IMG/VR virus record: IMGVR_UViG_3300030329_003387
Origin: a virus
Strand: one strand, 5' to 3'
DNA: 64,000 nt
Position 1 is the stretch's first letter, and every line of letters starts with the position of its first letter. A program made the position numbers and the translations under genes. This document shows positions 48,723-63,777 of this stretch, piece after piece. The notes under the pieces were generated by a model that searched no databases, was not told the DNA's origin, and was given only the letters and a program-made list of their open reading frames with translations.

Positions 48723-48730
48723 GATTGTAC

Positions 48731-49250: not shown

Positions 49251-49251
49251 A

Positions 49252-49374: not shown

Positions 49375-49401
49375 TTCTAGATTTTCTATTGACACAGGTG
49401 A

Positions 49402-49455: not shown

Positions 49456-49567
49456 AAGGCGCTTAATGAGACTAGTCTCAATAAGGGAATGTCAAGTAAA
49501 ATCTTATGAAAAATCCAAAAAATATACGATTATTTTTTTTGACCTTTTTTAGAAAAAATGTTGGTTG

Positions 49568-49601
49568 AGTGACCTAACGTGTCACGACCATATGCGATAA
49601 T
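49568..49601 (+). promoter_or_regulatory. Palindromic operator-promoter copy a
   Basis: AGTGACCTAACGTGTCAC-N10-GATAAT. Confidence 0.75.
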
Positions 49602-49644
49602 ACTTACATAAGAGATTAAGAAAACGTTTTTCGGAGAAAACAAA

Positions 49645-49860
49645 ATGTCAACTCGTTACCTAGTAGCCAAAGAAGACAATCAGCGAATTATCGCCAACAT
49701 CATTGCAAAGCTCGATGAGCTTTACAAGACCAACCGCACGCTGATTGACCAAGATAGTCAACCGGCTTGGCAAGCCATCGAAGAAAACTGGCAATATATG
49801 CGAGAATTGGAAGCTCGATTAAAAGACAGGAAAAACCCTAAAATTTACAAAGAAATATGA
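49645..49860 (+). CDS. Hypothetical early protein
   Basis: Conserved RBS leader. Confidence 0.7.
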   Translation: MSTRYLVAKEDNQRIIANIIAKLDELYKTNRTLIDQDSQPAWQAIEENWQYMRELEARLKDRKNPKIYKEI

Positions 49861-49864
49861 GCCG

Positions 49865-49898
49865 AGTGACCTAACGTGTCACACCCATAGGCGATACT
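49865..49898 (+). promoter_or_regulatory. Palindromic operator-promoter copy b
   Basis: AGTGACCTAACGTGTCAC-N10-GATACT. Confidence 0.75.
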
Positions 49899-49937
49899 AT
49901 TAGTATAAAAGTTAACCAAGTCATAAGGAGAAAACAT

Positions 49938-50168
49938 ATGACAAATACTGAAACTAAAACCGTTAAAGGCGTTGCTAGCGTTTGGCTCGCCGATTCACTG
50001 GAAACTGTGGAGTATGTCGCCACAGTTGAAACCGACATCGAAGTCGGTGCTGGTGGTGGTCGTTATGTAAACGACACCCGTGTCACATTTGACGAAATCA
50101 CCCTTGACGGTGAAGACGTTGTGAGTTGGGAAGTTGAAGACCAATTACGTAGCGAAGTCGCTGCGTAG
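49938..50168 (+). CDS. Hypothetical acidic early protein
   Basis: AAGGAG RBS. Confidence 0.7.
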   Translation: MTNTETKTVKGVASVWLADSLETVEYVATVETDIEVGAGGGRYVNDTRVTFDEITLDGEDVVSWEVEDQLRSEVAA

Positions 50169-50206
50169 TTGGATACCCCGCTTAATAAATTTTTTGGAGA
50201 AAACAA

Positions 50207-50539
50207 ATGAAACTAGAAACATTCAAGCAGGCCATCGAAGGCCAAAAAACGATTCGCTTAACTCACAAGATGGCACGCGGTGACGGCTATGTCACTGTCA
50301 ACCGCAAGGTTGAAGTGTCTGATTTATCCGTAGGTGAAAGCGGACTAATCGAATACACTTGCTACTTGGCCGGGGTTTGTCGGCACGTTCTGACAAGAGT
50401 GTCAGAGGTTGTCGAAGTCGAACCAGTGGCTAAGCCATTCAACATTCACGAACAATTTGGAATGACTGTTGAAGAATGGAACGCTTCGCAATCGGCTTGG
50501 GATGTGTTGCACGACATGCACGGATTAAGGGGATTCTAA
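50207..50539 (+). CDS. Hypothetical early protein
   Basis: Conserved RBS leader; shared C-terminal module. Confidence 0.7.
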   Translation: MKLETFKQAIEGQKTIRLTHKMARGDGYVTVNRKVEVSDLSVGESGLIEYTCYLAGVCRHVLTRVSEVVEVEPVAKPFNIHEQFGMTVEEWNASQSAWDVLHDMHGLRGF

Positions 50540-50540
50540 A

Positions 50541-50807
50541 ATGATGAAGTACAAAGTTCAAGGTAACGTATTGCCAACGCATATCATGCCGGAAGGTGAG
50601 CATCCCGTAAAGGCTACAGTTATTAGTCAATGGGTAGATGCTGATAACCCACTAGATGCAGCGGCTGAGTTCCTAATGAATAATGGCAAGGTAAACGCTA
50701 GCCCTATCCTAGTGGTAGATACTGATTACAATATCGGCAACTACCCTCTTGACTATGTGAAGATTGCTATAGATTACAGGGTAGGACTTAGAGAATACGA
50801 AAAATAA
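50541..50807 (+). CDS. Hypothetical early protein
   Basis: Coupled to upstream gene. Confidence 0.65.
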   Translation: MMKYKVQGNVLPTHIMPEGEHPVKATVISQWVDADNPLDAAAEFLMNNGKVNASPILVVDTDYNIGNYPLDYVKIAIDYRVGLREYEK

Positions 50808-50857
50808 AATCTGGATTTATTTCTAAAAAATTCTAGATTTGCTATTGACAAGGAAGA

Positions 50858-50911
50858 GGTAAGACGAGGCGCTTGCTTCGCCTTCACCCGTCGCAGGTGA
50901 AGCAAGCGGCT
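50858..50911 (+). repeat. GGTAARAC stem-loop element copy 2
   Basis: GGTAAGACGAGG-CGCTTGCTTCGCCT / TCACCCGTCGC / AGGTGAAGCAAGCG-GCT. Confidence 0.9.
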
Positions 50912-50969
50912 GAGAGGCAAGCAGGCCGAGAGAAAAAAAACGACATTTTTTAGGGAAAATTTGAGAATT

Positions 50970-51182
50970 ATGAATTACCAACCTTATGAAGCAAGAATGG
51001 CTAAGGACACCCCAACCGGCATGCGTTACCTAGTGCGATGCAATCATACAAACAAGTGGGCAATTTGTAGCTGGGTAGGCTCAACCGGCGCAGCAATCGG
51101 CAATCCCGAGTGTCAGGGAAAATACGAATATGTCATGAAAAAATGGCATAAACTTGTAGGAAAGTACGTGTCAGTGACCTAA
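50970..51182 (+). CDS. Hypothetical early protein
   Basis: ORF in track; ATG 50970 taken as start. Confidence 0.55.
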   Translation: MNYQPYEARMAKDTPTGMRYLVRCNHTNKWAICSWVGSTGAAIGNPECQGKYEYVMKKWHKLVGKYVSVT

Positions 51183-51206
51183 CGTGTCACGACCCTAGAC
51201 GATAAT
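51173..51206 (+). promoter_or_regulatory. Palindromic operator-promoter copy c
   Basis: AGTGACCTAACGTGTCAC-N10-GATAAT. Confidence 0.75.
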
Positions 51207-51240
51207 AATCACATAACAAGTAAACGTTTTGGAGAAAACA

Positions 51241-51516
51241 ATGAAGTATTTAGGAATTATCAACGGCTGGAAAGAGACACCAGCAGAATACACAAAGCAC
51301 TTGGCCGAGTGTGGTACTGAGTACGAAACAACCATATGCTATATGGAATATGGTACGAAGATAGACGCCGATGGCAATAGGTACGGAAGTACACCACGCC
51401 AACGCCAAGAGACGCGAAAGCGTTACGACTTAACGGTTAAGAAGTCAGGCACCTACAGCGTTAAGACTGAGGAAACTTGCAACGAGTGCGGTTGTAGTTG
51501 GGAGAGTTGGACATAA
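51241..51516 (+). CDS. Hypothetical early protein (C-terminal CxxC)
   Basis: GGAGAAAACA-ATG. Confidence 0.65.
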   Translation: MKYLGIINGWKETPAEYTKHLAECGTEYETTICYMEYGTKIDADGNRYGSTPRQRQETRKRYDLTVKKSGTYSVKTEETCNECGCSWESWT

Positions 51517-51608
51517 TGATAACTGAAATTATATTGTGCGCTATTGTTACAACTCCGGTGCTGTTTGTGTTGTGGGAAAATAATATTAAGGGGAAAGTAA
51601 ATGTTTAA
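51516..51608 (+). CDS. Small membrane peptide (30 aa), paralogue of 48639..48722
   Basis: MITEIILCAIVTTPVLFVLWENNIKGKVNV. Confidence 0.6.
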   Translation: MITEIILCAIVTTPVLFVLWENNIKGKVNV

Positions 51609-51840
51609 GTTAGAGTTTAAGCCGTTAAATGGTTACATTGTTGGCAAACAGGCAACAGGCAAATCTCAATATGGTTTTGAGTATAGTGTTGTGAAGTCCT
51701 CATTTAGTTATGGTGGTGAGCGTGGTTTGTACGAGTTCGCCGGATATGACGAAGCGGGCGAAATGGTACACGAAAAAGTACACGGCTGGCTGACACTGCA
51801 AGAAGCTACCGACATGGCCGAGAATTGGAAAGGTAAATAA
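51601..51840 (+). CDS. Hypothetical phage protein
   Basis: SVV...SYGG..GLYE...V.GWLT pattern seen in small phage proteins. Confidence 0.65.
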   Translation: MFKLEFKPLNGYIVGKQATGKSQYGFEYSVVKSSFSYGGERGLYEFAGYDEAGEMVHEKVHGWLTLQEATDMAENWKGK

Positions 51841-52017
51841 AATGGTGAAACGAAATTATCACAGATTGAATTATGACCCTTGGGCGTGGAAACCAGTCGC
51901 GCCGGAAACTGCTGAAGAGAAGGCAGACCGTAAACGCCGCGAAGCTATCGCAGCAGAGAAACGAGCAAAGAGGAAAAAATATTGAAAAAATCCTAAAATA
52001 CCTATTGACATAGGTCG

Positions 52018-52071
52018 GGTAGGACGAGGCGCTTAGTTGTCGTTCGCCCGTATCACGACAACTAAGCGGCT
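52018..52071 (+). repeat. GGTAARAC stem-loop element copy 3
   Basis: GGTAGGACGAGG-CGCTTAGTTGTCGT / TCGCCCGTATC / ACGACAACTAAGCG-GCT. Confidence 0.9.
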
Positions 52072-52085
52072 TAAGGAGGACACTC

Positions 52086-52370
52086 ATGACAGATTCACTT
52101 TTCAACGCCGAACTACGCGATTGCGCGCGCATCAACGAAATCGCCCAACAGCGCGTCACACCCGCGCAGGGCGTGCAGTGCGAGTACTGCGGGGAAACCT
52201 CCGCGTGTACGCAGGAGTGCGCCGCTTGTGGCGAACCTCTCGTCGATAACCCGCAAATCCACATGGGCGTGTGTTACGCCGATGCGTGCGGCTGTGGCAA
52301 AGCCGAATACGAAGGCCGACAGGCTCCGTTCGCGTTCATGGCGCACGACGACCCCGATTATTGGGGTTAA
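52086..52370 (+). CDS. Cys-rich (zinc-ribbon-like) hypothetical protein, GC-rich
   Basis: AAGGAGG RBS; CEYC, CAAC and CGC motifs. Confidence 0.7.
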   Translation: MTDSLFNAELRDCARINEIAQQRVTPAQGVQCEYCGETSACTQECAACGEPLVDNPQIHMGVCYADACGCGKAEYEGRQAPFAFMAHDDPDYWG

Positions 52371-52401
52371 GCTCTAAATTCCAGCCCATTAGAGGCCATC
52401 A

Positions 52402-52455
52402 GGTAGGACGAGGCGCTTGCTTCGCCTTCACCCGTCGCAGGTGAAGCAAGCGGCT
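52402..52455 (+). repeat. GGTAARAC stem-loop element copy 4 (near-identical to copy 2)
   Basis: GGTAGGACGAGGCGCTTGCTTCGCCTTCACCCGTCGCAGGTGAAGCAAGCGGCT. Confidence 0.9.
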
Positions 52456-52534
52456 GAGGGAGAACAAGGGAGGATAAGCTCCACGAACGCTGTGGTCGCT
52501 CCAGTTCCCCTAATTTAACATCGGAGAAAACAAG

Positions 52535-52723
52535 ATGAGCTACAAAGTAGAATTAAACCTTAGAGAACTTATTTGTGTTGAGCAAGCTATTGAGGATCGC
52601 ATCGAGCGATGCGAAACACGCATTGCAAAGTGCAATGAGTTAGGCATGGCGTCCGCCTCCGCTGAATGGCAAGAGCGGATAAACGCCGCCAAAGCCGTGT
52701 TAAAAATTGTCAAGAATTCTTGA
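52535..52723 (+). CDS. Hypothetical early protein
   Basis: GGAGAAAACAAG-ATG. Confidence 0.65.
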   Translation: MSYKVELNLRELICVEQAIEDRIERCETRIAKCNELGMASASAEWQERINAAKAVLKIVKNS

Positions 52724-52746
52724 TTTTGGCGAAAAAAATAAGACCG

Positions 52747-52780
52747 AGTGACCTAACGTGTCACACCGATAGCTGATAAT
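52747..52780 (+). promoter_or_regulatory. Palindromic operator-promoter copy d
   Basis: AGTGACCTAACGTGTCAC-N10-GATAAT. Confidence 0.75.
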
Positions 52781-52845
52781 AGTAATATCAAAAGGCAATA
52801 TTCAACTGGGGTAACCGACAGCACCCTAATACGAAAGGTAACAAA

Positions 52846-52965
52846 ATGGACAATGTTTTAGAGATGGAGTGGATGGAGTGGCTTGCTATAGTTGAGGCTT
52901 TTGACTCACAAACCAAGCAGGTTTTTAATGAGTGCGACGAATTAGAAGAAGAATTGGAGAAGTAA
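52846..52965 (+). CDS. Small acidic peptide (39 aa)
   Basis: GAAAGGT RBS; stop overlaps next ATG. Confidence 0.45.
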   Translation: MDNVLEMEWMEWLAIVEAFDSQTKQVFNECDELEEELEK

Positions 52966-53258
52966 TGGAAATTTTATTTTCACATATCACTGACGAATTA
53001 AAAGCCGGTTGGATCGAAACCGATAGATATGCAAATGGTAATCTTAGAGTTCAGCTAAACACGGCAGAAGAACCATACGCGACACTATCAACCAACATTG
53101 CCGGAATTTGGTTAGAGAAGGATTGTTTTATCGCCAAGACCTATAGCGAGAACGAAGGACTAAACGAGCAGTTTATTGAGAGCGGTTTGTTTGAGGATAC
53201 CGGCGAAAAGGTTGCAGCGGGTTTTGTAACATGTCCAATATTGAGGTTCAAAGGGTAA
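52965..53258 (+). CDS. DUF4313-like protein
   Basis: Y.NGNL.VQL...EPYATLSTN...FIESGL..DTG....GFVTCP pattern. Confidence 0.55.
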   Translation: MEILFSHITDELKAGWIETDRYANGNLRVQLNTAEEPYATLSTNIAGIWLEKDCFIAKTYSENEGLNEQFIESGLFEDTGEKVAAGFVTCPILRFKG

Positions 53259-53260
53259 CA

Positions 53261-53539
53261 ATGAGTAATAAGCAATTAACTAGAAAAGTTAAAGACCACC
53301 GAGGAAATGAACACGAAGTTTATAAGTGGTACTGGATGAAGGGCTGGGAATTTTACCAGACAGAGCCGAGTGACGAGTTCGGCGTTACATTTGGATATAT
53401 GACAAACTGCCCTTGCCCTGAGTGGGGAAGTCAGCACGAAGCCGAGTTAGATGATATTTCCTCTGTGACTGCTGAGAGATTTGATTTATGGGAATTAGCT
53501 CCGCCGCAAGGTTGGGAGTGGTTAGAAAAGGAGAATTGA
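53261..53539 (+). CDS. DUF2958-like hypothetical protein
   Basis: WEFYQTE...FGYM...PEWG....EL pattern. Confidence 0.45.
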   Translation: MSNKQLTRKVKDHRGNEHEVYKWYWMKGWEFYQTEPSDEFGVTFGYMTNCPCPEWGSQHEAELDDISSVTAERFDLWELAPPQGWEWLEKEN

Positions 53540-53540
53540 G

Positions 53541-53696
53541 ATGCAAGAATATTTTGAATACCTAGCTGAGTTACAAGCTAGCGGAACCATGAATATGATG
53601 TGGGCGCCGACTATGTTACAAGCTGATTTTGACCTAGAGAAAAAGGAGGCTCGTGAAATATTCAGTAAGTGGTGCGACTCATTGAAAAACGAGTAG
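53541..53696 (+). CDS. Small conserved phage protein (51 aa)
   Basis: YFEYL.ELQASGTMNM..AP..L...F.....EAREIF..W; AAGGAG RBS. Confidence 0.6.
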   Translation: MQEYFEYLAELQASGTMNMMWAPTMLQADFDLEKKEAREIFSKWCDSLKNE

Positions 53697-53711
53697 TGCC
53701 AAGCTCGTGAT

Positions 53712-53765
53712 ACCCCTGTCGCCGCTCTGTAACTGTTCCTTTTCCTTGGCGGCAGGGGTTTATTT
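53712..53765 (+). terminator. Large-loop hairpin/terminator H1
   Basis: ACCCCTGTCGCC / 24-nt loop / GGCGGCAGGGGT + TTATTT. Confidence 0.55.
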
Positions 53766-53767
53766 CA

Positions 53768-53821
53768 GGTAAGACGAGGCGCGTTGTTGGCGTTCACTGT
53801 ATCACGGCAACAACGCGGCTC
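53768..53821 (+). repeat. GGTAARAC stem-loop element copy 5
   Basis: GGTAAGACGAGG-CGCGTTGTTGGCGT / TCACTGTATC / ACGGCAACAACGCG-GCTC. Confidence 0.9.
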
Positions 53822-53834
53822 AAGGAGAAAGCAA

Positions 53835-54005
53835 GTGAGTAAGCGAAAGAAGACAAGCTGGAAAGTAGTCATCAAGCAGGATGACCTCAAGGTATCAATC
53901 GGCCATACGGCACACACAACCGGCACTGGTATACATGATAGCCGACCACGCCGACAGCGTACACGGTCAGCACAAAAAAATCGAGCAATTAGGGAATTTT
54001 TCTAA
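53835..54005 (+). CDS. Small basic His/Arg-rich protein
   Basis: AAGGAG RBS + GTG; GH..H..G.GIHD.R.RR.RTR. Confidence 0.6.
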   Translation: MSKRKKTSWKVVIKQDDLKVSIGHTAHTTGTGIHDSRPRRQRTRSAQKNRAIREFF

Positions 54006-54013
54006 ATAATTCC

Positions 54014-54042
54014 TTGTCAGTGTCCGATATATAAACTATAAT
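54014..54042 (+). promoter_or_regulatory. Early promoter with CCGAT spacer motif
   Basis: TTGTCA-17-TATAAT. Confidence 0.7.
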
Positions 54043-54068
54043 CAGGTATCTTAGTTAGGGAGAATACA

Positions 54069-54263
54069 ATGGATACAATACACTACAGAAACGGCGAGCG
54101 TATGGTGAGATGTAAGTTCACTAAGGATATTTCTTTGCCGATGTCAAACAGGGACAAGAAAGTCCTAGACCCAGATAGAGATAAGCGTATAGCTTTATAC
54201 TCTGCCAGACAGGACGCAGGCTTAGATATATTCACTGGTTGGTTTAAGGAGGAAGCAGCGTGA
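54069..54263 (+). CDS. Hypothetical early protein
   Basis: GGGAG RBS. Confidence 0.65.
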   Translation: MDTIHYRNGERMVRCKFTKDISLPMSNRDKKVLDPDRDKRIALYSARQDAGLDIFTGWFKEEAA

Positions 54264-54415
54264 TAGATAAGTTTATAGATTTCCGTAAGGAATATGGCAT
54301 TGTTGGATTTATGTTCATGGGTGGTTTATTTACATTTTGTGGTTGGTGGTATATCAAGGAACTAATAGAAGTATTGACGAAATAACTGTGTTGCCCAACG
54401 TAGGGTAACAAACGG

Positions 54416-54464
54416 GAACCGCCTACGTCGTGCTAACTCTCTCCACGACGTAGGCAGTTCTTTT
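54416..54464 (+). terminator. Hairpin/terminator H2
   Basis: GAACCGCCTACGTCGTG / CTAACTCTCTC / CACGACGTAGGCAGTTC + TTTT. Confidence 0.6.
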
Positions 54465-54656
54465 CTAAAAAAGGAGGAAGATTATGATTATGAAAGTTAT
54501 AAGTAAAGACCATACAGACGAACAGCTAAAAGAAGATATGGCTGATTTGCTTGTACTGCACAAACATGCAATGGAAACTGAAATGATGTGGCAATTCTTT
54601 GGTGGAGTTATCACATTAGACAATGGCAATAAGTATCAAGTAGCGGAGTTTGAATA

Positions 54657-54830
54657 ATGAAAGTAGAAACACACGAACAATTACGGGCTTCGATGCTTTG
54701 CATCATAGCATTTACATTAGGATGTATAGTCGTATTTTGCAGTGGGTGTAAAGCCGGACTGCAAACTAAGGTAGGTATGTTTGGCGAAGAATATAGTTCT
54801 GGAATTGGCGTATATACAGATAAAGAATAG
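54657..54830 (+). CDS. Small putative lipoprotein
   Basis: Hydrophobic N-terminal segment ending FCSGC (lipobox-like). Confidence 0.4.
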   Translation: MKVETHEQLRASMLCIIAFTLGCIVVFCSGCKAGLQTKVGMFGEEYSSGIGVYTDKE

Positions 54831-54841
54831 ACTTCCTCCGT

Positions 54842-54892
54842 CCCTGTCGGTAGCACTACAACATCACGTTGCCCGCCTCGCTACCGGCAGGG
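54842..54892 (+). other. Large-loop hairpin H3
   Basis: CCCTGTCGGTAGC / 25-nt loop / GCTACCGGCAGGG. Confidence 0.55.
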
Positions 54893-54902
54893 GCTTCCTT
54901 TA

Positions 54903-54957
54903 GGTAAAACGAGGTGCTTACAACGCCTTCGCCCGTCTCAGGCGTTGTAAGCAGCTC
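54903..54957 (+). repeat. GGTAARAC stem-loop element copy 6
   Basis: GGTAAAACGAGG-TGCTTACAACGCCT / TCGCCCGTCTC / AGGCGTTGTAAGCA-GCTC. Confidence 0.9.
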
Positions 54958-55079
54958 AAGCAGAAAGCGAGTGAGAACGAGACCGATGGGCGACTAGAGC
55001 GGTGGGGCAGAAGCCCAGTATTCAGCAGGTGAAATCCGCACCCATATAGAATTTTTTCAAAATAATTGAAGTCAGGGGC

Positions 55080-55107
55080 TTGTAAAGTCCGATATATATA
55101 GTAGACT
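55080..55107 (+). promoter_or_regulatory. Early promoter with CCGAT spacer motif
   Basis: TTGTAA-16-TAGACT. Confidence 0.55.
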
Positions 55108-55146
55108 GGTAGTGTAGTTAGTTAGTTAGTTTTTTAGGAGAAAGCA

Positions 55147-55446
55147 ATGGAAATTTGCAAATCAACCAAAACCGTTTTGAAGTTCACCAACGAGTCAAGC
55201 GTTAGCACCTACAGCCGTACTTGGTCGAACGTAATCGAAGTAGATTTTTCTGAGGGTTTGAGCGGTGTCGAGAATCGGTATGAACTTGAGATGCCGATTG
55301 AAAAGGCTGAGTGGTTACTTGAGTCACTGACCGAGACAATCAACAGCTTCAAGGAAACCAAAGCCGCAGAGCGTGCCAAAAAAGAAGCCGCAGAGAAACA
55401 GGCGGCGGATTCGCTTGACGGTGAAACTGAAAATTCTTCAGATTAG
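55147..55446 (+). CDS. Hypothetical early protein
   Basis: AGGAG RBS. Confidence 0.7.
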   Translation: MEICKSTKTVLKFTNESSVSTYSRTWSNVIEVDFSEGLSGVENRYELEMPIEKAEWLLESLTETINSFKETKAAERAKKEAAEKQAADSLDGETENSSD

Positions 55447-55499
55447 GTTGTTGACAGTGTTGTATAGTGTGGTAAATTGTAAGTAAAGGAGAAAACATT

Positions 55500-55853
55500 A
55501 TGTTGAAAACAGGACAAAAAGTTAGGTTTCATTACCTAAAACAGTTCAAGGATGAACTAAAAAGTGGTCAAGTCCTAACGGATTACGCCACTACGTCAGA
55601 GTCCTACTCTGGCAAAGTCGTAGATGTTCGTAACATCGTTGACCATCCCGTCTCTAACGAGACTATCCGCAGGGATAACATCAAAGGCCGTAGGTCTGAG
55701 ATGTTGTACACTGTCGAGTTGGATGGTGATGATGGTGTGAAAGCCTTCTACGACGGTCGAATGGTTGGCACGGAAGTGCTACCTGAGACTAAACGAGGTG
55801 TCTGGAAATTGATGGCTTCGGCTTTCAAAAGACGGAAACCTCAACCGGCGTAA
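55500..55853 (+). CDS. Hypothetical early protein
   Basis: AAGGAG RBS; TTGACA-16-TAAATT promoter at 55451-55478. Confidence 0.7.
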   Translation: MLKTGQKVRFHYLKQFKDELKSGQVLTDYATTSESYSGKVVDVRNIVDHPVSNETIRRDNIKGRRSEMLYTVELDGDDGVKAFYDGRMVGTEVLPETKRGVWKLMASAFKRRKPQPA

Positions 55854-55961
55854 GCCGGACTTGGTGTCCAGTATAAGCCTTCGTCGCACCTTCGGGTGAC
55901 AGGATTGGTAGGACAATTTAGGATTTATGCGGAGTGGCTACCGCACACCAAATTTTATATC

Positions 55962-56079
55962 GAGAGGTGCCACCGTGAACCTATGGCAATGTAAGGTCGC
56001 AAGACCGGCAATAAGGCGGTGGAGCAGGCATCAAAACCTGTAGCGCGGTTAATCGTGGGTTCGACTCCCACACTTCTCG
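55962..56079 (+). ncRNA. tRNA-like RNA with enlarged D-arm and non-canonical anticodon loop
   Basis: Acceptor GAGAGGT/ACTTCTC; T-arm GTGGG-TTCGACT-CCCAC; internal CCACCG/CGGTGG and GCAGG/CCTGT stems. Confidence 0.6.
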
Positions 56080-56088
56080 CTTTTTATA

Positions 56089-56255
56089 TGGCTTGGCACA
56101 GTAATTGGCGCCGGTTGATAAGCCAGTAGAACGAAAAACGACACGAAGCCGAGGATGCCTTGAGGGGCGGTTAACCAAATCGGTGGATACACCGGAACAG
56201 CTTAGTTCCTGCGTTTTACTGCAATCGGTCAGGGGTGCAAATCCCCTGCGAGTCA
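56089..56255 (+). ncRNA. Second tRNA-like-domain RNA with large internal insert
   Basis: TGGCTTG/CGAGTCA closing stem; T-arm-like CAGGGG-TGCAAAT-CCCCTG; CAGTAA/TTACTG helix. Confidence 0.45.
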
Positions 56256-56333
56256 CTCTTATTCGAGAACGTCGTGGCGGACGATAAAACGCCACTCAAG
56301 TCCTCGACTCAAAACGAGGCTTGTTTTCTCCCG

Positions 56334-56370
56334 CTCCCTATCGGCTGTCTCAGCCGGTAGGGGGTTTTTT
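56334..56370 (+). terminator. Intrinsic terminator ending the ncRNA cluster
   Basis: CTCCCTATCGGCTG-TCT-CAGCCGGTAGGGGG-TTTTTT. Confidence 0.85.
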
Positions 56371-56384
56371 AATGCAGTAAATTA

Positions 56385-56437
56385 GGTAAGACGAGGCGCT
56401 TGATTCGCCTTCACTGTATCAGGTGAATCAAGCGGCT
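56385..56437 (+). repeat. GGTAARAC stem-loop element copy 7
   Basis: GGTAAGACGAGG-CGCTTGATTCGCCT / TCACTGTATC / AGGTGAATCAAGCG-GCT. Confidence 0.9.
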
Positions 56438-56489
56438 GGGAGACAACAGCAAGACAAACAAAACGACGATAATTTTTTCAAGAAAATTA

Positions 56490-56517
56490 TTGCAATAGCC
56501 GATATATATGTTATATT
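56490..56517 (+). promoter_or_regulatory. Early promoter with CCGAT spacer motif
   Basis: TTGCAA-16-TATATT with TG extension. Confidence 0.6.
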
Positions 56518-56539
56518 GGAATTAGTTAGGGAGAAAATT

Positions 56540-57229
56540 ATGACTTGGGTTCATTTAACAAACATATCCGGCAATCGTAAAGTCGGGCCAATTAAAGTTA
56601 CCACTACCGAAAAAAGCTCTTGCCCTAGTGAGTGCGGCATAGCTGATGAATGTTACGCCGGTGGCGGGCCTCTTAATATCCACTGGAACCAAGTGAGTCA
56701 GCACAATCGTGGTGATAATTGGGACGGGTTTGTGAATCGTGTTAAGCGGTTCCGCAAAAACGAATTGTGGCGACATAATCAGGCAGGGGATTTACCGCAA
56801 GATGAAAACGGTAAAATGGACTCCGATAAGTGTGAAGCACTAGCCGACGCCGCTTCCCATACTGACGGTTGGACATATACGCACTATGACCCAACCGACA
56901 CCCATAATAATGCAGTTATTAAAGGGATGAATGAAATTGGTGGCCTAGTGGTAAACTTATCAGCCGATACAGTAGAACAGGCCGACGAATATCACGAATT
57001 AGGTATTGCACCTATTACAGTTGTGTTGCCGGAAGATGCCCCAAACATGGGAAACAAAACGCCAAACGGTTTACCGATTGTAGTTTGTCCGGCTCAGACT
57101 CAGGAAGATATATCTTGCAACATTTGCGAGTTGTGCCAAAAGCGAGACCGTAAAAGTATCGTAGGATTCAAGGCACACGGAACAAAACGCAAAAAGCTAT
57201 CAGAGAAGTTGGTCAGCAATGCGGTATAA
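56540..57229 (+). CDS. Cys-rich gp88-like/DUF7227-like phage protein (possible Fe-S binding)
   Basis: N.KVG, SCP..C....CYA, WRHNQAGD, WTYTH, NLSAD, CPAQ...C..C.LC...VGF.AHG motifs. Confidence 0.65.
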   Translation: MTWVHLTNISGNRKVGPIKVTTTEKSSCPSECGIADECYAGGGPLNIHWNQVSQHNRGDNWDGFVNRVKRFRKNELWRHNQAGDLPQDENGKMDSDKCEALADAASHTDGWTYTHYDPTDTHNNAVIKGMNEIGGLVVNLSADTVEQADEYHELGIAPITVVLPEDAPNMGNKTPNGLPIVVCPAQTQEDISCNICELCQKRDRKSIVGFKAHGTKRKKLSEKLVSNAV

Positions 57230-57677
57230 TTATTTAGAGACGCTAGACCATATGGAATACATACCCGAAACAACGCTAGAAAAAATGGTAACAATAATAG
57301 AGATGAACGGAATAGACAAAAACAAAAAAGTAGAAGTATACTTCAACCTACATAAAAAATGTTGGAGCGTTAGGCAATCAGGCAGGCCGGTTGTACATAC
57401 GGATTTTATAGAACTTAAAGACCCGCAGTTTGTAGTACAGCAAGGCGGCAATGCTAGAGTACGACGGGAAAAGAAAAAGAACGTTCACGCGTTCGTTCGT
57501 GGATACCTGACCGAGCGAGTTGGGATATTTCCCAAAAACCAAAAGCTAGTAACCTATAACCCGTACAAGCATACCAGCTTTGTAGAACGTGGCAGCGAAA
57601 AGCCAATCTGTAGCGCTGAATATGCCGTGCTGGATATCACCGACAAAAAGCCGTTAGTCGAGGCGCTCTGGTTCTAA
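57219..57677 (+). CDS. Conserved phage hypothetical protein
   Basis: VYFNLHKKCWSVR...KNVHAFVRG...YNPYK motifs. Confidence 0.7.
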   Translation: MRYNYLETLDHMEYIPETTLEKMVTIIEMNGIDKNKKVEVYFNLHKKCWSVRQSGRPVVHTDFIELKDPQFVVQQGGNARVRREKKKNVHAFVRGYLTERVGIFPKNQKLVTYNPYKHTSFVERGSEKPICSAEYAVLDITDKKPLVEALWF

Positions 57678-57689
57678 CAATGAGAATAG

Positions 57690-57744
57690 GGTAAGACGAG
57701 CAGCATAGTTACCAGTCTGCGTCTTTCCGTAACTATGCTGCTCG
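57690..57744 (+). repeat. GGTAARAC stem-loop element copy 8 (divergent loop)
   Basis: GGTAAGA-CGAGCAGCATAGTTAC / 16-nt loop / GTAACTATGCTGCTCG (16-bp perfect stem). Confidence 0.75.
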
Positions 57745-57818
57745 CGGAGGGGTAAACGAGGGTCAGTGCTAGTAGTCAAAGATATTTGGAAAAATTGTGA
57801 TATTTTGCTACTGAGTAA

Positions 57819-57847
57819 TTGACGAACCTGCCGATGTACATTATATT
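57819..57847 (+). promoter_or_regulatory. Early promoter with CCGAT spacer motif
   Basis: TTGACG-17-TATATT. Confidence 0.65.
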
Positions 57848-57909
57848 GGAAGTATGTTGAGGGGAGAAAGTTATCCCCGTTAGTTGTTTTTTTTTGAAAG
57901 GGGTCAATC

Positions 57910-58206
57910 ATGACCGACACTCAGAAGGCCGCACCTATCAGTGCGACAGATTTTGTTAAGGCTTACGTCACCACTCATCAATCAGGTGGCACCATTGCTG
58001 ACTTGGCAACTGCACTAAATCGTAGTGTAGATCAAGTCCGTGCAAAGCGGAATTCGATTTCTGCACAGCTTAAAAGTCGTGGGCAATCATTGCCATCTTT
58101 GAAGCGAATGGAACGTGACAGTTCTGCTTATGATGAAGCCGCAAACATTGTGGGCGATTATCTTAGCACTCTTATGGGTGAATCCGATAGTCACGAGCAA
58201 GGCTAG
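57910..58206 (+). CDS. Small HTH-like DNA-binding protein
   Basis: TIADLATALNRSVDQVRAK. Confidence 0.55.
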   Translation: MTDTQKAAPISATDFVKAYVTTHQSGGTIADLATALNRSVDQVRAKRNSISAQLKSRGQSLPSLKRMERDSSAYDEAANIVGDYLSTLMGESDSHEQG

Positions 58207-58214
58207 AAACGTAT

Positions 58215-58246
58215 AAGAGGGGCGGGATTTTTCTCGCCCCCTCTTT
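58215..58246 (+). terminator. Intrinsic terminator
   Basis: AAGAGGGGCGGGA...TCTCGCCCCCTCTTT. Confidence 0.55.
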
Positions 58247-58315
58247 ACACTTCTTCCACTGTCAAGTATATTAGATAGTAGTAAGTATATTGTTGATTTT
58301 TTGAAAGGTGTTGTA

Positions 58316-59560
58316 ATGGATAATTACGAACGAATTATTGGCGCTGGCAACCAAGGCGATTTTGTTCTTGAAAACCAGCAAACTGCCGACAGGGAAGGTT
58401 TCTCTCATGTATCTAAATCTTGGTACGATAAAACCATTTCCTATGATGAAGGCATGGAAGCGTTGGAGTCCGAAGTAGGCCATCGTGAGGACTACTTAGT
58501 ACCTAAATCAGACATTCAGTTTGATGTACAGTTTATTAACGGTAAGCCATCTTTTGGCGTAAGTCTAAACGATGGGTTCTACGTTCCTACCGACCATGCT
58601 TTGACTCAGCTTGTTTCTAAATCCTGCCAAAACAAAGGCACGGGATTTGTAAGATCATTACGTGAAAACGTATTTAACAACAAGGATGAGGTTAAGGTTG
58701 ATCGAGATTTTCAGGACATGACGACGATTCTTTCTATCGTTCGTAATGGATTTCGACGATTACCAACTGATTCTAAGTTTAAGCTACGGTGTTATGATGA
58801 CGGCACAATGCGTGCTTTCCTGTCTGAAAAATACGCCGAAGTTGATAACCGCTGGTATCTTGAACAGATTAAGAATATCGTACCCGCAGGGCGTTTATCG
58901 CACTGGCGTGGCGATGCCGATACAATCTGGGGTAACGTGTTGATTCCTGACACAATCCGTGAAGAGGATGATTCGGACTATGGTGGTATGGTATCGTTGG
59001 CTAATTGTGAAATTGGCAAGCGTGCAATATACTCAATGCCATCGGTGTTTCGAGCTATCTGCATGAACGGCTGTATCTGGGATCAAACCGCCGGTACTAA
59101 AATTCGTGTAGTCCATATGGGTGACATTGATTTGACCGACCTAGCGGTTAAACTCCGAGATAACATCGAAAAGCAAATACCGCTTATCCCGCAGGGTATT
59201 GAACGTCTTTTGGGTATCCGTGCTAAGGGTACAGACGGTGTTGCTATGAAAAATCTCATCGGTGCAACTGCACAGTTTGAGAAGATTGACAAGCGTGGAG
59301 CTACTGCTATACTGGAATCATGGGTTAAGCATGAATCCAAAATAGCACCCGCTGAACGCAGTTTGTTCGATGTCGTCAACAGTGTAACACGGGCTGGTCA
59401 ATTCCTCGACAACCAAAGTTGGGTGAGGTATGATGAGCTTGGTGGACGGCTTGCTAATTACTCTGACAAAAAGTGGGAGTCTCTCAAGAGACGAGCCGCT
59501 GACTTAGAGGAAGCCGACTTTAAGAAAATCTATAGCGGTCAACCTGTACTCTCGGCATAG
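58316..59560 (+). CDS. DUF932-family protein
   Basis: RAFLSEKY..VDN, N.EIG, FRAICMNG, H and SLFDVVNSVT motifs. Confidence 0.75.
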   Translation: MDNYERIIGAGNQGDFVLENQQTADREGFSHVSKSWYDKTISYDEGMEALESEVGHREDYLVPKSDIQFDVQFINGKPSFGVSLNDGFYVPTDHALTQLVSKSCQNKGTGFVRSLRENVFNNKDEVKVDRDFQDMTTILSIVRNGFRRLPTDSKFKLRCYDDGTMRAFLSEKYAEVDNRWYLEQIKNIVPAGRLSHWRGDADTIWGNVLIPDTIREEDDSDYGGMVSLANCEIGKRAIYSMPSVFRAICMNGCIWDQTAGTKIRVVHMGDIDLTDLAVKLRDNIEKQIPLIPQGIERLLGIRAKGTDGVAMKNLIGATAQFEKIDKRGATAILESWVKHESKIAPAERSLFDVVNSVTRAGQFLDNQSWVRYDELGGRLANYSDKKWESLKRRAADLEEADFKKIYSGQPVLSA

Positions 59561-59662
59561 GTTACGATATGGATGGATGATTCGACCTACACATTTTGGG
59601 TAGTAATAATCACTGTAACATTCGTTCTCACGTTTCTCAATGAATCGAAGAACGACTAACCG

Positions 59663-59697
59663 AAGCACCTCGCCGCAAGGCGGGGTGCTTTTTTTTG
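59663..59697 (+). terminator. Intrinsic terminator
   Basis: AAGCACCTCGCC-GCAA-GGCGGGGTGCTT followed by a T-run. Confidence 0.85.
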
Positions 59698-59739
59698 CAA
59701 AAAATATACACAGAGGGCTTGACATAGGGCGACAGATGG

Positions 59740-59784
59740 GGTAAAACGCGCGGCCCTCCCTGTCTCCGCCGAATCGGGCCGCTC
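59740..59784 (+). repeat. GGTAARAC stem-loop element copy 9 (degenerate)
   Basis: GGTAAAACGC-GCGGCCC / 19-nt loop / GGGCCGC-TCG. Confidence 0.5.
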
Positions 59785-60974
59785 GCAGCGAGTATATCAT
59801 GGGCCAGTGAGTTAGCAGTCAGCGCATAAAAAAACCCTCACGCGCGAAAGGTGTAACGCGTAAGGGTCTCTTGCATATAATAAGAGGTTGGTTATTATAT
59901 ACAATATCAGAAGGTACATCGGAGTAGAGTATACCTTATGAATGCACTCTATGGTTATTCCGTGGTATGTGCTGAACCACATATGGCCGAATGTCTAAGT
60001 AGATGTCTTTAGATAGACACACGGTGGAAGGCACTCATAGCTTACCTCCCCTGCCGTACTAACACAATATACGCAATGTGTATAATGGTCTTCCATGCTT
60101 GTAGGTCGGGGCAACCTATTATACTAGTTATGGTAATACGGGACGCAACGCTGGAAGCGTGAGCAAGTGAGTTAGCGATTTGCTAACATATATATTGCAT
60201 GTCCACGTATGGATATGGTAGTATGTATGTTGGAGGAGTCGGAAGCCTCTTATTATATCTATTACGCCTCTTCTTGCCGCCATACAATACGGTCTGTGTT
60301 AGAAAAAAGAGGAGAGCCGCCAAACATATTAAACGTAAACCTTTCTTCATCTATTACTCCTAAAAAATTACTCTCATTACTCCAGTTTAGCACAGCCAGT
60401 CATTTAATCAAGCTATGTGTTATTGTTTTTTAGTAACTTCCGGTTTTTTTTAATTTAATTGGTATTCGGCAGGTAAAAATCCCCTAACACAGAACCTAAC
60501 AAAGAACAGTCTTTGATTAGCCTCAGTAGCGTCTCTTTCCCGCCTCTTACGCCGCCATCCCCCTAGCGTATCATACGAATTAGTTAATATCAAGTAACAC
60601 TTTTAATATTATCGGGAATACATGGTGCAAACTTGTGGCTTTTTTTCCAAAAAACGATTGACCGGCTCAATATTCCATGATAAACTAGACGATAGGACAC
60701 AATACAAACGTATATAACCCCTTATAGGGTCGTTATCCCACAATGAAACGGCAACAATATACTCGTTTGGGCATCAATCCCACGAAATGTGCCGGACGCT
60801 GGTTAAATTTTTGAAAGTAATCTAATGCCTGTAATACCTAATTCTCTGTTATTGCTTATATATATAACCTATATGTGTATGGCTTTATTATGTGCTAGTG
60901 TTATATATCTTATGTATTGGTTTATTTGTAATATTGTTCTTGGGTAGAAAAATATAGAAAACGGGAGAAATGAT

Positions 60975-62144
60975 ATGGAAAATAAAAAGTCTTTTGGCTT
61001 GCCTACTATTGATAATAGTCAACACTCAGATGATAGAGTCTATGATAGGTACTTTGGTAAGGAGTCTGAACTTGGGTTGTCTGCCAATAATCTAAATACG
61101 ATAGCCATAGATCAGGATGAGTGTGTTAGGGAAGCGGTTGCAAGAGGTTACAACAGGATTTCTATACTGCACAACCTATGGATAGAGGAAGAGGGTTTTT
61201 GGCACATATCTCTGGGTTGGTCTTTACAGACTATTATTGAAAAGAGCATTAACAAGGATAATGAGTACAAGGTTGTAACCTGTATGATACAGGACAACCG
61301 TGACTCTCACGACGATCAAACGTGTGGCTTGGATGAGAATGGTATTAGGAGAAAGGTAGACCATACATTTGATAAGAGGTACAAGTATTGTAAGTATCGT
61401 GATGTAAGGGCTGGCTATGTGGTGAAGCCTGTATGGATTAAAGCTGGTTCCGACTTGGAAAAACAGATAATGCGTGTCAGTAACATTAAAGGTCATATAA
61501 ATGTTATTGGCGAGACAACTAAAATGTCAAAGGAGTATCCATACGTTGGGTGCAAGGGCTTTAACGATATTGAGTGGGTTGGTAAGTATCCACCATCAGG
61601 AGCTATAAAACAGATGGAAGTTGGTGGTGGTGAGTTCTTTGTAAGTGCTGGGAAGGACACTCACGACTATCTTGAATGGTTTGAATATAAATCTTATGGC
61701 AAGGCTAGTTGGAAATACAGGTATCAGTTTACAAGAGCGTACCAATGCGCTAGACAAACTGAAATGGAGAAAGAAAACGAGGCAATGCTAAAGAATAAAC
61801 GTAAAATGCTTTTAGATTGTCGTGTCTTCACGGATGAATTTAGGCGAACATTAGTAGAAATAATAGATTTTACATATCCTCCGCATTGCGAAGACAGGGG
61901 TGACAAAATTATTGATGTTACTGAGAAGAAATTAGTAACTAATCGTAATGAACAGAATTTTAAGAGTGCTAAACGTGGTGAACTAAACAAAGACATTGAA
62001 TTAAGCAGGGGTCAAGTGAAATGCCGAATAAAAAGTGCAAAGCATGTGGAGTATCCGTACATGTACGCCGAAGAGAATGTGACTGCGGGTATAAGTTCCC
62101 TGCTCCCAAAAAGAAAGCCCCTACCTCCCGAAAAAGAGATATAG
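60975..62144 (+). CDS. Hypothetical protein
   Basis: 389 aa, GGGAG RBS. Confidence 0.7.
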   Translation: MENKKSFGLPTIDNSQHSDDRVYDRYFGKESELGLSANNLNTIAIDQDECVREAVARGYNRISILHNLWIEEEGFWHISLGWSLQTIIEKSINKDNEYKVVTCMIQDNRDSHDDQTCGLDENGIRRKVDHTFDKRYKYCKYRDVRAGYVVKPVWIKAGSDLEKQIMRVSNIKGHINVIGETTKMSKEYPYVGCKGFNDIEWVGKYPPSGAIKQMEVGGGEFFVSAGKDTHDYLEWFEYKSYGKASWKYRYQFTRAYQCARQTEMEKENEAMLKNKRKMLLDCRVFTDEFRRTLVEIIDFTYPPHCEDRGDKIIDVTEKKLVTNRNEQNFKSAKRGELNKDIELSRGQVKCRIKSAKHVEYPYMYAEENVTAGISSLLPKRKPLPPEKEI

Positions 62145-62356
62145 ATCCTAACACAGTTGACTATGTGTTTGATGGGTGGAAGAAAGTACCTGCAAGGACT
62201 AGATTGCAGAAGTGTGGTACATGTAGTAAGAAGATGAAGGGTGGTATGATTGCATGGCACTCTTCGTACACGGACGGTGAAAAGTATTGGTGGTGTGAGA
62301 GTTGTCTAAAGGATTTCAAGGATGAAACTTTTTATAAACTTAGTCAGACGAGTTGA
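62021..62356 (+). CDS. Zinc-finger-like hypothetical protein
   Basis: CKAC, CDC, CGTC and CESC motifs. Confidence 0.6.
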   Translation: MPNKKCKACGVSVHVRRRECDCGYKFPAPKKKAPTSRKRDIDPNTVDYVFDGWKKVPARTRLQKCGTCSKKMKGGMIAWHSSYTDGEKYWWCESCLKDFKDETFYKLSQTS

Positions 62357-62406
62357 TGCGTTATTTACTATGTTAGTGATGAAATTTGTGGGCGAGGATA
62401 ATTTTT

Positions 62407-62568
62407 ATGAGTGAAGAACCAACAGTAGCGTTTGATACAAAGGTAGGTGAGACATACTTTGAGTATGAACGTAAGGATGGTAGCCGATTCCTGTCTATTA
62501 TTGGGTGGGATGAGTGGGACTTAGATAAATATGGATTAAAATTCATACAAAAGGTGGTGTGGAAATGA
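62407..62568 (+). CDS. Small hypothetical protein
   Basis: GAGG RBS before ATG 62407. Confidence 0.45.
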   Translation: MSEEPTVAFDTKVGETYFEYERKDGSRFLSIIGWDEWDLDKYGLKFIQKVVWK

Positions 62569-62713
62569 ATCCAATAGGAATAGTTGATGTTTTCATATGG
62601 GCGGCATTGCTAACAGCCGCATACTCAGGATTTGAGCCTAGTAGGTTCACTGAATTCTTTTTATGGTTAGCACTTATATTTCATAAATGGGAATTATCTC
62701 AGAAAATTAAAGA

Positions 62714-62956
62714 TTGTTCTTGAAAAAACCGAAATTGGAGTTTAAGATGGTTATAGATTTTGAATTTTACCGAGAAGTTGAAACCGCTGTGCTTTGTGGA
62801 ACCAAAATGAGCGAGGATAAGTGGCTTCGTGACACGGCAGACGTTCGTAGAATGTTCAAGACCGACGACGAAGAGTATTTTCGCTCAACTGGCAAACGTC
62901 TATTGTCCGAGTACGGACTGACATACGCACAGAAGAACCGTAAGGCAAAGAAATGA
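62714..62956 (+). CDS. Hypothetical protein
   Basis: ORF coupled (ATGA overlap) to the next gene; true start may be ATG 62747. Confidence 0.5.
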   Translation: MFLKKPKLEFKMVIDFEFYREVETAVLCGTKMSEDKWLRDTADVRRMFKTDDEEYFRSTGKRLLSEYGLTYAQKNRKAKK

Positions 62957-63441
62957 ACATATTTGTTTTAGATAGTGACGTTGAAAAGGCCGCAAGGTGG
63001 CATGTCGATAGACATGTTGTCAAGATGCCGCTAGAGACTGCTCAGATGCTCTGTACCGCACGACATGAGCTTGGCGGGACTCCTGAGCATATTCCTTACA
63101 AGGTCGCTCATAAGAACCATCCCTGCACCGTATGGGCGAGGCAAAGCCGAGCAAATTATCAGTGGTTGTGTGATTTAGGTATAGCATTGTGTGAGGAATA
63201 TACATATAGGTATGAAAAGGTACACAAATGTCAGGCAGTAATACAAGATTGCATTGACAATCCTCCCGAATTCACTAACACAGAGATTACAGAGTTTCCA
63301 CAAGCTATGGACGAGGAATACAAGATGGATGATCCTATCATGGCATACAGGAACTACTACAACAAAGGTAAAGCACATTTACATGACTGGAAGAAAAGAA
63401 CTACACCGGAGTGGATAGAAATAGAGAATGAGATTCTTTGA
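62953..63441 (+). CDS. Pyrimidine-dimer DNA glycosylase (DenV/Pyr_excise-like)
   Basis: MNIFVLD...DRHVVKMPLETAQML...HKNHPCTVWAR...AYRNYY. Confidence 0.8.
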   Translation: MNIFVLDSDVEKAARWHVDRHVVKMPLETAQMLCTARHELGGTPEHIPYKVAHKNHPCTVWARQSRANYQWLCDLGIALCEEYTYRYEKVHKCQAVIQDCIDNPPEFTNTEITEFPQAMDEEYKMDDPIMAYRNYYNKGKAHLHDWKKRTTPEWIEIENEIL

Positions 63442-63776: not shown

Positions 63777-63777
63777 T

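Follow-up and report, generated by a model that had tools for sequence, protein, structure and literature searches.

A conserved anti-Shine–Dalgarno strand at the end of a predicted early operon in an uncultured marine phage and its probable pairing with ribosome-binding leaders

The window analysed here is the whole 64,000-nucleotide (nt) stretch of virus record IMGVR_UViG_3300030329_003387 (W below; its relatives are labelled L001, L123 and so on), which belongs to an uncultured marine phage. Its early region carries a predicted operon whose last segment, just before an intrinsic terminator, is a short pyrimidine-rich motif (56320–56332) complementary to the Shine–Dalgarno (SD) leader shared by early genes. 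GenBank phages showed no DNA similarity to 55850–56480 or to 48000–55900, and the closest cultured relative of the gene downstream of the operon (a DUF7227 gene, 56540–57229) was found in Roseobacter phage CRP-345, at 49% amino-acid identity. The operon and its downstream flank comprise the following features.

55451–55478, + strand: predicted sigma-70 promoter (TTGACA, 16-nt spacer, TG-extended TAAATT); 12 relatives have an extended -10 promoter at the same place
55488–55497, + strand: SD leader GGAGAAAACA of the operon's first gene, a 10-nt perfect complement to 56322–56331 and the predicted partner of the motif in cis
55500–55853, + strand: gene for a 117-amino-acid (aa) protein of no Pfam or PHROG family, predicted to be a small beta-barrel; homologues in L001–L008 and in the L12x clade
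55854–55959, + strand: module A, a conserved structured non-coding segment that begins at the stop codon; 94–100% nucleotide identity in relatives, covered by RNA-library contigs
55962–56079, + strand: module B, an RNA shaped like a transfer RNA (tRNA), with a 7-base-pair (bp) acceptor stem GAGAGGT/ACTTCTC and a canonical T arm GTGGG-TTCGACT-CCCAC
56090–56258, + strand: module C, a tRNA-like RNA with acceptor stem GGCUUG(G)/CGAGUC, T arm at 56230–56248 and a purine discriminator at 56255
56274–56295, + strand: trailer hairpin 1, GUGGCG-GACGAUAAAA-CGCCAC, conserved in the clade
56302–56319, + strand: trailer hairpin 2, CCUCG-ACUCAAAA-CGAGG, abutting the motif; its sequence is lineage-specific, and self-complementarity is kept at the same place
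56320–56332, + strand: the anti-SD strand CUUGUUUUCUCCC (DNA CTTGTTTTCTCCC), between a hairpin and the terminator, exact reverse complement of the early-gene leader GGAGAAAACAA
56333–56371, + strand: intrinsic terminator with a 15-bp stem (9 G-C), a 3-nt loop and U6; the stem varies with compensatory changes in relatives
56385–56440, + strand: element E, GGTAAGACGAGG followed by a covarying hairpin and GCGGCU..., always after the terminator and marking the unit boundary
56529–56537, + strand: ribosome-binding site (RBS) GGGAGAAAA of the DUF7227 gene, a 9-nt complement to the motif (-13.7 kcal/mol) and a possible partner on read-through

Transcription would start near 55485, leaving a 5′ untranslated region (UTR) of ~15 nt, and the operon would then be ordered as promoter, 15-nt leader with the SD, 117-aa gene, structured module, two tRNA-shaped modules, two hairpins, CUUGUUUUCUCC and terminator. 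The motif segment is non-coding and lies on the early-gene strand, between the predicted promoter at 55451–55478 and a + oriented terminator. No promoter-like site was listed on the + strand between 55924 and 56490, whereas an independent small RNA (sRNA) gene would have its own promoter directly upstream; the trailer is continuous with the module array. The segment 55854–56375 folds better than shuffled sequences on both strands (z -3.3 and -3.9). An earlier note on this DNA, made from its letters alone, had described a ~500-nt non-coding structured region ending in a strong terminator, with the reverse complement of the early leader directly before it. This description holds in each part: the region is made up of three structured RNA modules in a conserved array, and two or more of these have the shape of a tRNA; the 15-pair hairpin followed by TTTTTT starts at 56333; 56320–56332 is the exact reverse complement of the leader; and the 12/12 matches at 48785 and 52523, as well as the 11-nt matches at other leaders, were all recovered.

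The complementarity is confined to a particular class of site. Allowing up to two mismatches, GGGAGAAAACAAG (the reverse complement of CTTGTTTTCTCCC) occurs at eight + strand sites (48626, 48785, 49632, 50195, 51230, 52522, 53823 and 54058), each directly before a start codon; this search gave 9 matches in total, against 2.0 expected, and none of 100 shuffles reached 9. The 10-mer GGAGAAAACA is found eight times on the + strand, always as a leader (48627, 48786, 49633, 49927, 50196, 51231, 52523 and 55488), and once on the minus strand, that single occurrence being the motif itself; 0.24 occurrences were expected. TTTCTCC occurs only once on the + strand of 47001–64000. Seen from the leader, only 56317 in the + strand RNA of the early region reaches -10 kcal/mol or better in pairing with the consensus leader AAGGAGAAAACAA (score -14.6). 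A duplex scan of both strands of the whole window returned 12 early translation-initiation regions as the best partners of the motif (-14 to -18.3 kcal/mol), and found no such sites at the starts of late messages. Apart from the operon's own leader, these partners include the following.

48621–55148, + strand: other early initiation regions pairing with the motif at -14 kcal/mol or better in the duplex scan, at 48621, 48780, 49627, 49920, 50190, 51225, 52518, 54053, 54242 and 55131

In its fuller form the early leader reads UUUU(U)-N-GGAGAAAACAA(A)-AUG (48627–52534), and it stands thus behind at least three different promoter types. Since the promoters and upstream sequences of the early initiation regions differ, duplication of a cassette would not by itself account for the shared leader. 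The uniform leader UUUUU-GGAGAAAACAA-AUG is also kept, three times, in the L001 phage (L201).

That the match arose by chance, or that the motif is in truth the RBS of a gene on the minus strand, is very improbable. GGGAGAAAACAAG does read as a good SD on that strand, where a 104-aa open reading frame (ORF) starts at 56295, but no start codon lies 5–10 nt after this SD, and the GTG at 56295 is 32 nt away. Minus-strand ORFs also start at different places in W, L123, L126, L134, L137 and L001, in different frames and with different lengths, and overlap RNA modules with covarying helices; a minus-strand gene using the motif was therefore rejected, since its ORFs are not conserved across relatives, and the doubt that the earlier note had itself raised on this point can be set aside. 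Chance is opposed by the 0.24 occurrences expected and by the invariance of the motif, described next.

Relatives were gathered by a protein-based search of metagenome contigs with the downstream gene, blind to the motif, which yielded 80 loci; the trailer alignment comprised 17 distinct relatives. UUUCUCC was invariant in all 17, and the motif thus persists in relatives that retain the leader, as the earlier note had required of a functional element. The 11-nt window UUGUUUUCUCC was the second most conserved of the trailer, after the start of element E. The motif is real and conserved, and its position is conserved as well: in the clade of 84–97% identity it lies just 5′ of a hairpin, and it does so, at another location, in the L001 type. 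When the broad pattern TTTTCTCCNGCTCCCT was sought in viral contigs, 93 matching stretches were found; BLAST of the trailer against them gave only short matches at the pattern, except for the L001 contig.

In the RNAalifold consensus fold the motif is unpaired between two hairpins, and it shares one feature with anti-SD sRNAs, namely a conserved, unpaired, pyrimidine-rich stretch complementary to SDs. The probability of its being unpaired was 0.85–1.0 in most relatives; in W, L126, L137 and L148, which have a GAGAA allele upstream that is able to pair with the motif, the value was 0.4–0.5. The local minimum-free-energy (MFE) structure of W, in which the motif pairs with GAGAA (56265–56269) and CAAG (56297–56300), was rejected, as relatives have AAAAA and CAUG/CACG at these places. 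In L001 and L141 there is no U tail, and the motif lies at the base of an extended hairpin. A second anti-SD copy is present in L130, L133 and L137, where it occupies the 16-nt apical loop of a different unit-end hairpin; in L137 it is the full 12-mer. In one near-identical relative (L162:1483–1560) the motif is kept and the terminator hairpin is missing, CTCCCGCTCCCTA being joined directly to ATTAGGTAAGACGAGG, through either a natural deletion or an artefact of assembly.

The partner pointed to by folding the whole predicted transcript is the leader of the operon itself. In the fold of 55485–56372, a 10-bp helix between the SD (55488–55497) and the motif (56322–56331) closes the entire RNA, in both the MFE and the centroid structures. 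The probability of this pairing was ~1.0 in W and 0.93–1.00 in 11 relatives; the MFE structure contained it in W and in 10 of the 11 relatives, that of L001 being different. The two paired segments are bracketed by one predicted promoter and one terminator, both limits of the transcript being predictions. We therefore tentatively favour a reading in which the segment is a 5′/3′ anti-SD element like that of icaR, the leader of its own transcription unit being the most likely partner. In Staphylococcus aureus, a UCCCCUG motif in the 3′UTR of icaR mRNA pairs with the SD of the same mRNA, blocks initiation and creates a substrate for RNase III (PMC3868564); in Bacillus subtilis, a 14-bp helix joining the 5′-UTR of hbs mRNA to its 3′-UTR modulates RNase access (PMC5737220). 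The phage operon, too, has a short C/U-rich anti-SD motif near its predicted 3′ end and an SD that would lie on the same transcript, and the ends of the folded full-length RNA pair with each other here by thermodynamic prediction only. Unlike icaR, the present case is a phage early operon known from sequence alone, with ~470 nt of tRNA-like RNAs between gene and motif; the motif is UGUUUUCUCC rather than UCCCCUG, and no sequence relationship exists.

Under this favoured reading the motif would act through Watson–Crick pairing with ribosome-binding leaders of the GGAGAAAA type, its partner being the SD of the 117-aa gene (55488–55497) and possibly also the GGAGAAAGCAA leader at 55136. With the 3′ end made, a helix of ~10 bp would join the two ends of the transcript; it would occlude the SD and may protect the ends, as in the icaR and hbs mRNAs. 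Should tRNA-processing enzymes excise the tRNA-like modules, a piece of about 75–115 nt consisting of hairpin, seed and terminator would be released, and could additionally pair in trans with other early leaders in the manner of an sRNA derived from a 3′ external transcribed spacer (3′ETS). Complementarity, conservation, accessibility and folds were computed, the latter two as predictions; the transcript limits, the processing and any effect on translation are inferred.

Natural variants of the seed fit the operon's own leader. The L001 variant GUGUUUUCUCC pairs over 12 nt with the leader of its own unit, GGAGAAAACAUG (-18.7 kcal/mol), and more weakly (-15 to -16 kcal/mol) with the three uniform GGAGAAAACAA leaders of that phage; the L134 variant CAUUUCUCC keeps its pairing with its own leader GGAGAAGU. 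For strict clade-wide covariation between seed and leader, a check of the kind that the earlier note had proposed, the near-invariance of the seed leaves just these two variants (the L001 type and L134) to go by.

The unit just upstream ends in a comparable way, with CUUCCUCC (54832–54839) immediately 5′ of a hairpin, followed by element E. CUUCCUCC is the exact complement of GGAGGAAG, which serves as an SD on the + strand only at 54248–54255 and 54473–54480, both in that same upstream unit. The SD and the flank of this unit change together in relatives (GAGGAAAGG/CCUUUCCUC in L137, AGGGAAG/CUUCCCU in L001), the cognate pair being the best in both. Element E itself recurs at early-unit boundaries in every relative, with seven + strand copies in the window (50858, 52018, 52402, 53768, 54903, 56385 and 57690) and 4–5 in each relative (L001, L123, L126, L130, L134 and L137 among them). 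Its consensus is GGTA(A/G)NACGAG(G/C), a 12–16-bp hairpin and GC(G/A)GCU; the stem differs between copies with complementarity kept, and the element holds the most conserved block of the trailer alignment. Several copies are followed by an SD-like CAAGGAGARAGCRAGUGAG, and some stand directly after TATTGACA without a -10 box. The 3′ flank of the local copy (56433; -13.5 kcal/mol) was rejected as a partner of the motif because this pairing is not conserved in the L124, L129 and L130 types.

Several points weigh against pairing within the operon's own transcript. The start and the end of that transcript are predicted, and the 5′ end used for folding was set at the predicted start, which favours pairing between SD and motif; the helix spans 870 nt and as a prediction is weak evidence. 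The best (12/12) matches are leaders in other units (48785 and 52523), and in W the C at 56332 and the CUUG end are unmatched by the operon's first leader. The covariation consists of two or three independent changes among mutually similar purine-rich or pyrimidine-rich sequences, and L127 is an exception to it in the neighbouring unit. Given so few independent events among such similar tracts, this evidence is suggestive only; any CU-rich stretch looks complementary to an SD. If the tRNA-like modules were processed quickly, the link in cis would also be cut early.

The same general resemblance underlies another explanation, which we consider unlikely: that the motif is conserved for a reason other than RBSs, as a pyrimidine-rich single-stranded platform beside the terminator, and that its SD complementarity is a by-product of CU-richness. 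Such a platform might supply an Hfq-binding module with its U-rich part, might be bound by ribosomal protein S1 or by a phage protein, or might tune termination or 3′-end stability. The position of the invariant core UUUCUCC directly 5′ of the terminator would suit it, as would other unit-end hairpins of this phage group with CU-rich flanks or loops (UUCCUUUUCCUU at 53712–53759 and CUUCCUCC at 54832), and a CU-rich strand will always look complementary to purine-rich SD leaders. A generic pyrimidine tract, however, would not need an exact 10–13-nt match (0.24 expected), nor would it be the unique site for this leader in early RNA; the joint changes of flank and SD in the neighbouring unit and the seed variants that track their own leader would also be left unexplained.

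The 12 early initiation regions raise the question of whether the motif acts beyond its own transcript, as the earlier note had proposed in suggesting that one trans-acting RNA represses the whole early module. In this explanation the trailer (hairpins, seed and terminator) would be a dedicated sRNA, released from the tRNA-like array in the way of a tRNA 3′ external transcribed spacer; it would accumulate, perhaps bound by Hfq or by the small beta-barrel protein that the phage itself encodes, and block the shared early leader, shutting off early translation. We regard this as possible but rather doubtful. It is consistent with the number and strength of the predicted targets, the best of which lie in other units, and with the lack of such sites at late mRNA starts. 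The layout resembles that of an sRNA: two hairpins flank a single-stranded, U-rich seed, and there is a GC-rich terminator with U6. The adjoining RNAs have an acceptor stem, a T arm and an R-CCA/CCC tail and should attract tRNA-processing enzymes, and true tRNAs occupy this place in distant relatives. Furthermore, the seed is more constant than any single leader, as expected of a seed with multiple targets; the uniform leader recurs behind unrelated promoters and is also retained by the L001 phage; and a second anti-SD copy occupies a hairpin loop in L130, L133 and L137.

Precedents for such an RNA exist. 3′ETS-leuZ is an sRNA sponge cut by RNase E from the trailer of the Escherichia coli glyW-cysT-leuZ tRNA operon, which binds Hfq and pairs with RyhB and RybB (10.1101/2021.04.25.441314). 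The phage segment resembles it in being a trailer after the last tRNA(-like) gene, in ending with the intrinsic terminator of the operon and in having a single-stranded pairing region between two stem-loops; the motif lies 65–77 nt past the 3′ end of module C and abuts the terminator. It differs in that the upstream genes are tRNA-like and not canonical tRNAs, in that the targets are RBSs rather than sRNAs, and in that release and Hfq binding are suppositions here. The sRNAs of Firmicutes with C-rich (UCCC) seeds (RsaE, other Rsa RNAs and the RNAIII type) bind several SDs through an unpaired pyrimidine-rich motif and prevent formation of the initiation complex (PMC2790875). The motif here is of the same kind, but those sRNAs are independent genes with their own promoters and carry their motifs mostly in hairpin loops, whereas the phage motif is the 3′ end of an operon.

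Against action in trans stands the fact that the discrete RNA is itself a prediction. The seed is half occluded in the four genomes with the upstream GAGAA allele, W among them; L001 and L141 lack the U tail and bury the motif at the hairpin base; and the L001 variant suits its own leader more than the uniform ones. A repressor of early genes that is itself transcribed early would also require some delay. Of the earlier proposal, then, the complementarity, conservation, accessibility and 12 predicted targets stand, but the folds, the seed variants and the neighbouring flank favour pairing within the unit. The further suggestion that an sRNA explains the uniformity of the RBS leaders meets other possible explanations, such as an optimal initiation region combining U-rich, SD and A-rich parts, or an 11-nt target of the RegB/S1 type: T4 early genes share such a target, GGAGAAUAAAA, in their SD leaders (PMC1702504). 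As with RegB/S1 and RegA in T4, many early messages may be addressed here through a shared 11-nt SD leader, GGAGAAUAAAA in T4 and GGAGAAAACAA in this phage, but RegB is a protein endonuclease and the effector proposed here is an RNA. No RegB-family match was found among the ten early proteins scanned, a set that covers the small ORFs only partly. In its broadest form, which we hold to be doubtful, the 3′ external spacer of a tRNA-mimic operon would be a trans anti-SD sRNA freed by host tRNA-processing enzymes and possibly chaperoned by a protein of Sm-like fold, the one that the first gene of the operon encodes; it would silence the early gene set through the shared leader, with unit-matched strands at the ends of other early units forming a wider SD/anti-SD code.

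A third way of pairing concerns transcripts that pass the terminator, on which the motif could pair with GGGAGAAAA (56529–56537), so that the DUF7227 gene would be translated only from its own promoter. The perfect 9-nt complement includes the third G; the CUCCC of the W type goes with GGGAG, and the CUCCUU of other clades with AAGGAG; and 14 consecutive pairs, counted by eye, are allowed in L127. Such control is nevertheless quite improbable: the C/U switch is a single event, the fit is poor in L126 and L134, the terminator is strong, and the pairing of the motif with the flank of the local element E is not conserved. Taking pairing in cis, in trans and on read-through together, a pairing function for the motif is likely. 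From its sequence, the motif probably blocks translation by base pairing, most likely first on its own transcript.

Antisense RNA c4 of phages P1 and P7 is cut from an operon transcript by RNase P and represses a gene of the same operon by pairing at its RBS region; it lies upstream of its target and is part of temperate-phage immunity. By analogy, the motif operon and c4 may be compared as phage RNAs with RBS pairing inside one operon, RNase P processing being hypothetical here. Homology to c4 was not found: 54000–58000 gave no Rfam match at E-values up to 1, and, as stated above, the GenBank phages showed no DNA similarity. Work on c4 by Hartmann et al. (1995) is listed among the references of PMC11143913. 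Judged by its sequence, the motif belongs to none of icaR, hbs, 3′ETS-leuZ, the UCCC-seed sRNAs or c4.

What is known of how phages time the shut-off of their early genes mainly concerns proteins, such as RegB, RegA and Alc of T4, and to our knowledge RNA-based control in lytic phages is poorly charted. What is new here is the setting, a phage early operon that joins a gene for a predicted small beta-barrel protein, tRNA-mimic RNAs and, at its end, an anti-SD strand, of which neighbouring units carry copies with a different match. For an abundant group of uncultured marine phages this provides a definite element open to testing: the strand is 12 nt long, its partners are defined, the seed has natural variants, and the next unit holds a second copy that is matched differently. 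If the motif acts in cis, 5′/3′-UTR control of the icaR type would reach phages, and with them operons in which a protein gene is combined with tRNA-like RNAs; if it acts in trans, it would be a new route to a regulatory RNA and to the timing of early translation, an RNA counterpart of RegB and RegA of T4. Under either model, at least three uncatalogued, highly conserved structured RNA modules are flagged beside the motif.

These modules are among the most constant parts of the locus: modules A and B are 93–100% identical in nucleotide sequence in most relatives, whose neighbouring DUF7227 protein is only 79–87% identical. As read from the sequence, module B has an 8-nt loop on its anticodon-like arm and, in place of the D arm, a rod of ~60 nt capped by GCAA. 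It is 93–100% identical among the clade members with the same form; another form, which has an extra arm of 43 nt and whose anticodon-like stem is longer (L123:3376–3552, L141 and L129), is 88–89% identical over the shared part. A compensatory change, CCACCG/CGGTGG to CTACCG/CGGTAG, was seen in this module. One RNA-library contig (run X15) joins 56018 to 56050 and so skips the 31-nt anticodon-like arm. The block GTTTGA(A)TGACACTTCC(A/G)GC is present both in the extra arm of module B (L123:3470–3513) and in the terminator loops of L124, L126 and L128–L137, and may be either a small mobile insert or a binding site common to both.

In module C a long branched arm of ~110 nt replaces the anticodon arm, and the 3′ tail is CTC in W and CCA or CCC in relatives. 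Its consensus (alignment A2, ten homologues, RNAalifold) has 43 pairs, 18 of them with compensatory changes. A reading of module C as transfer-messenger RNA (tmRNA) was rejected, as it has no G3:U70 and, by eye, no conserved tag frame. Neither module is a canonical tRNA or tmRNA, given the 8-nt loop and giant D arm of the one and the branched arm of the other; Rfam 15 cmscan gave no match on either strand of 54000–58000, and ARAGORN found no tRNA or tmRNA gene in the window or in close relatives. In distant relatives true tRNA genes are close to the homologue of the DUF7227 gene, at several loci just upstream of it. In L007 (2414–2620 and 2770–2990) and L002 (3270–3500), module C and a further structured RNA each stand behind their own consensus promoter, so that in phages of this type several non-coding RNAs are encoded as independent genes; the further RNA and module A have the core ACAGGATYGGTARGACRRTTYAGG in common. 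Trailer hairpin 1, with the consensus GUGGCG-GAC(G/U)AUAAAA-CGCCA(C/U), recurs in the distant relatives L006 (4413–4434) and L008 (4095–4116), there immediately behind the stop codons of unrelated genes.

RNA-library contigs from four marine metatranscriptome runs lie over 54586–56246, with a small patch near 57005–57174, and thus cover the 117-aa gene and modules A–C up to 56246; none was placed over 56318–56900, which is evidence neither for nor against a transcript there, as such contigs carry neither strand nor transcript ends. Over the 117-aa gene word depth reached 313 (run X15), contig depth being unable to rank genes. The AlphaFold model of the 117-aa protein had a mean confidence (pLDDT) of 69; in a fold search with VIA-align, LSm, Tudor, Hfq-like, WYL and KOW folds were tied at Z 6–7.4, below the level that separates families, and a profile search against PDB sequences gave a marginal match only (E-value 0.063). 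Elsewhere in the window, the late minus-strand region contains a single ORF of 4354 aa (2112–15176), and the early region starts with a 153-aa ORF (47542–48003, + strand) that carries an HNH_3 endonuclease domain (E-value 5e-7).

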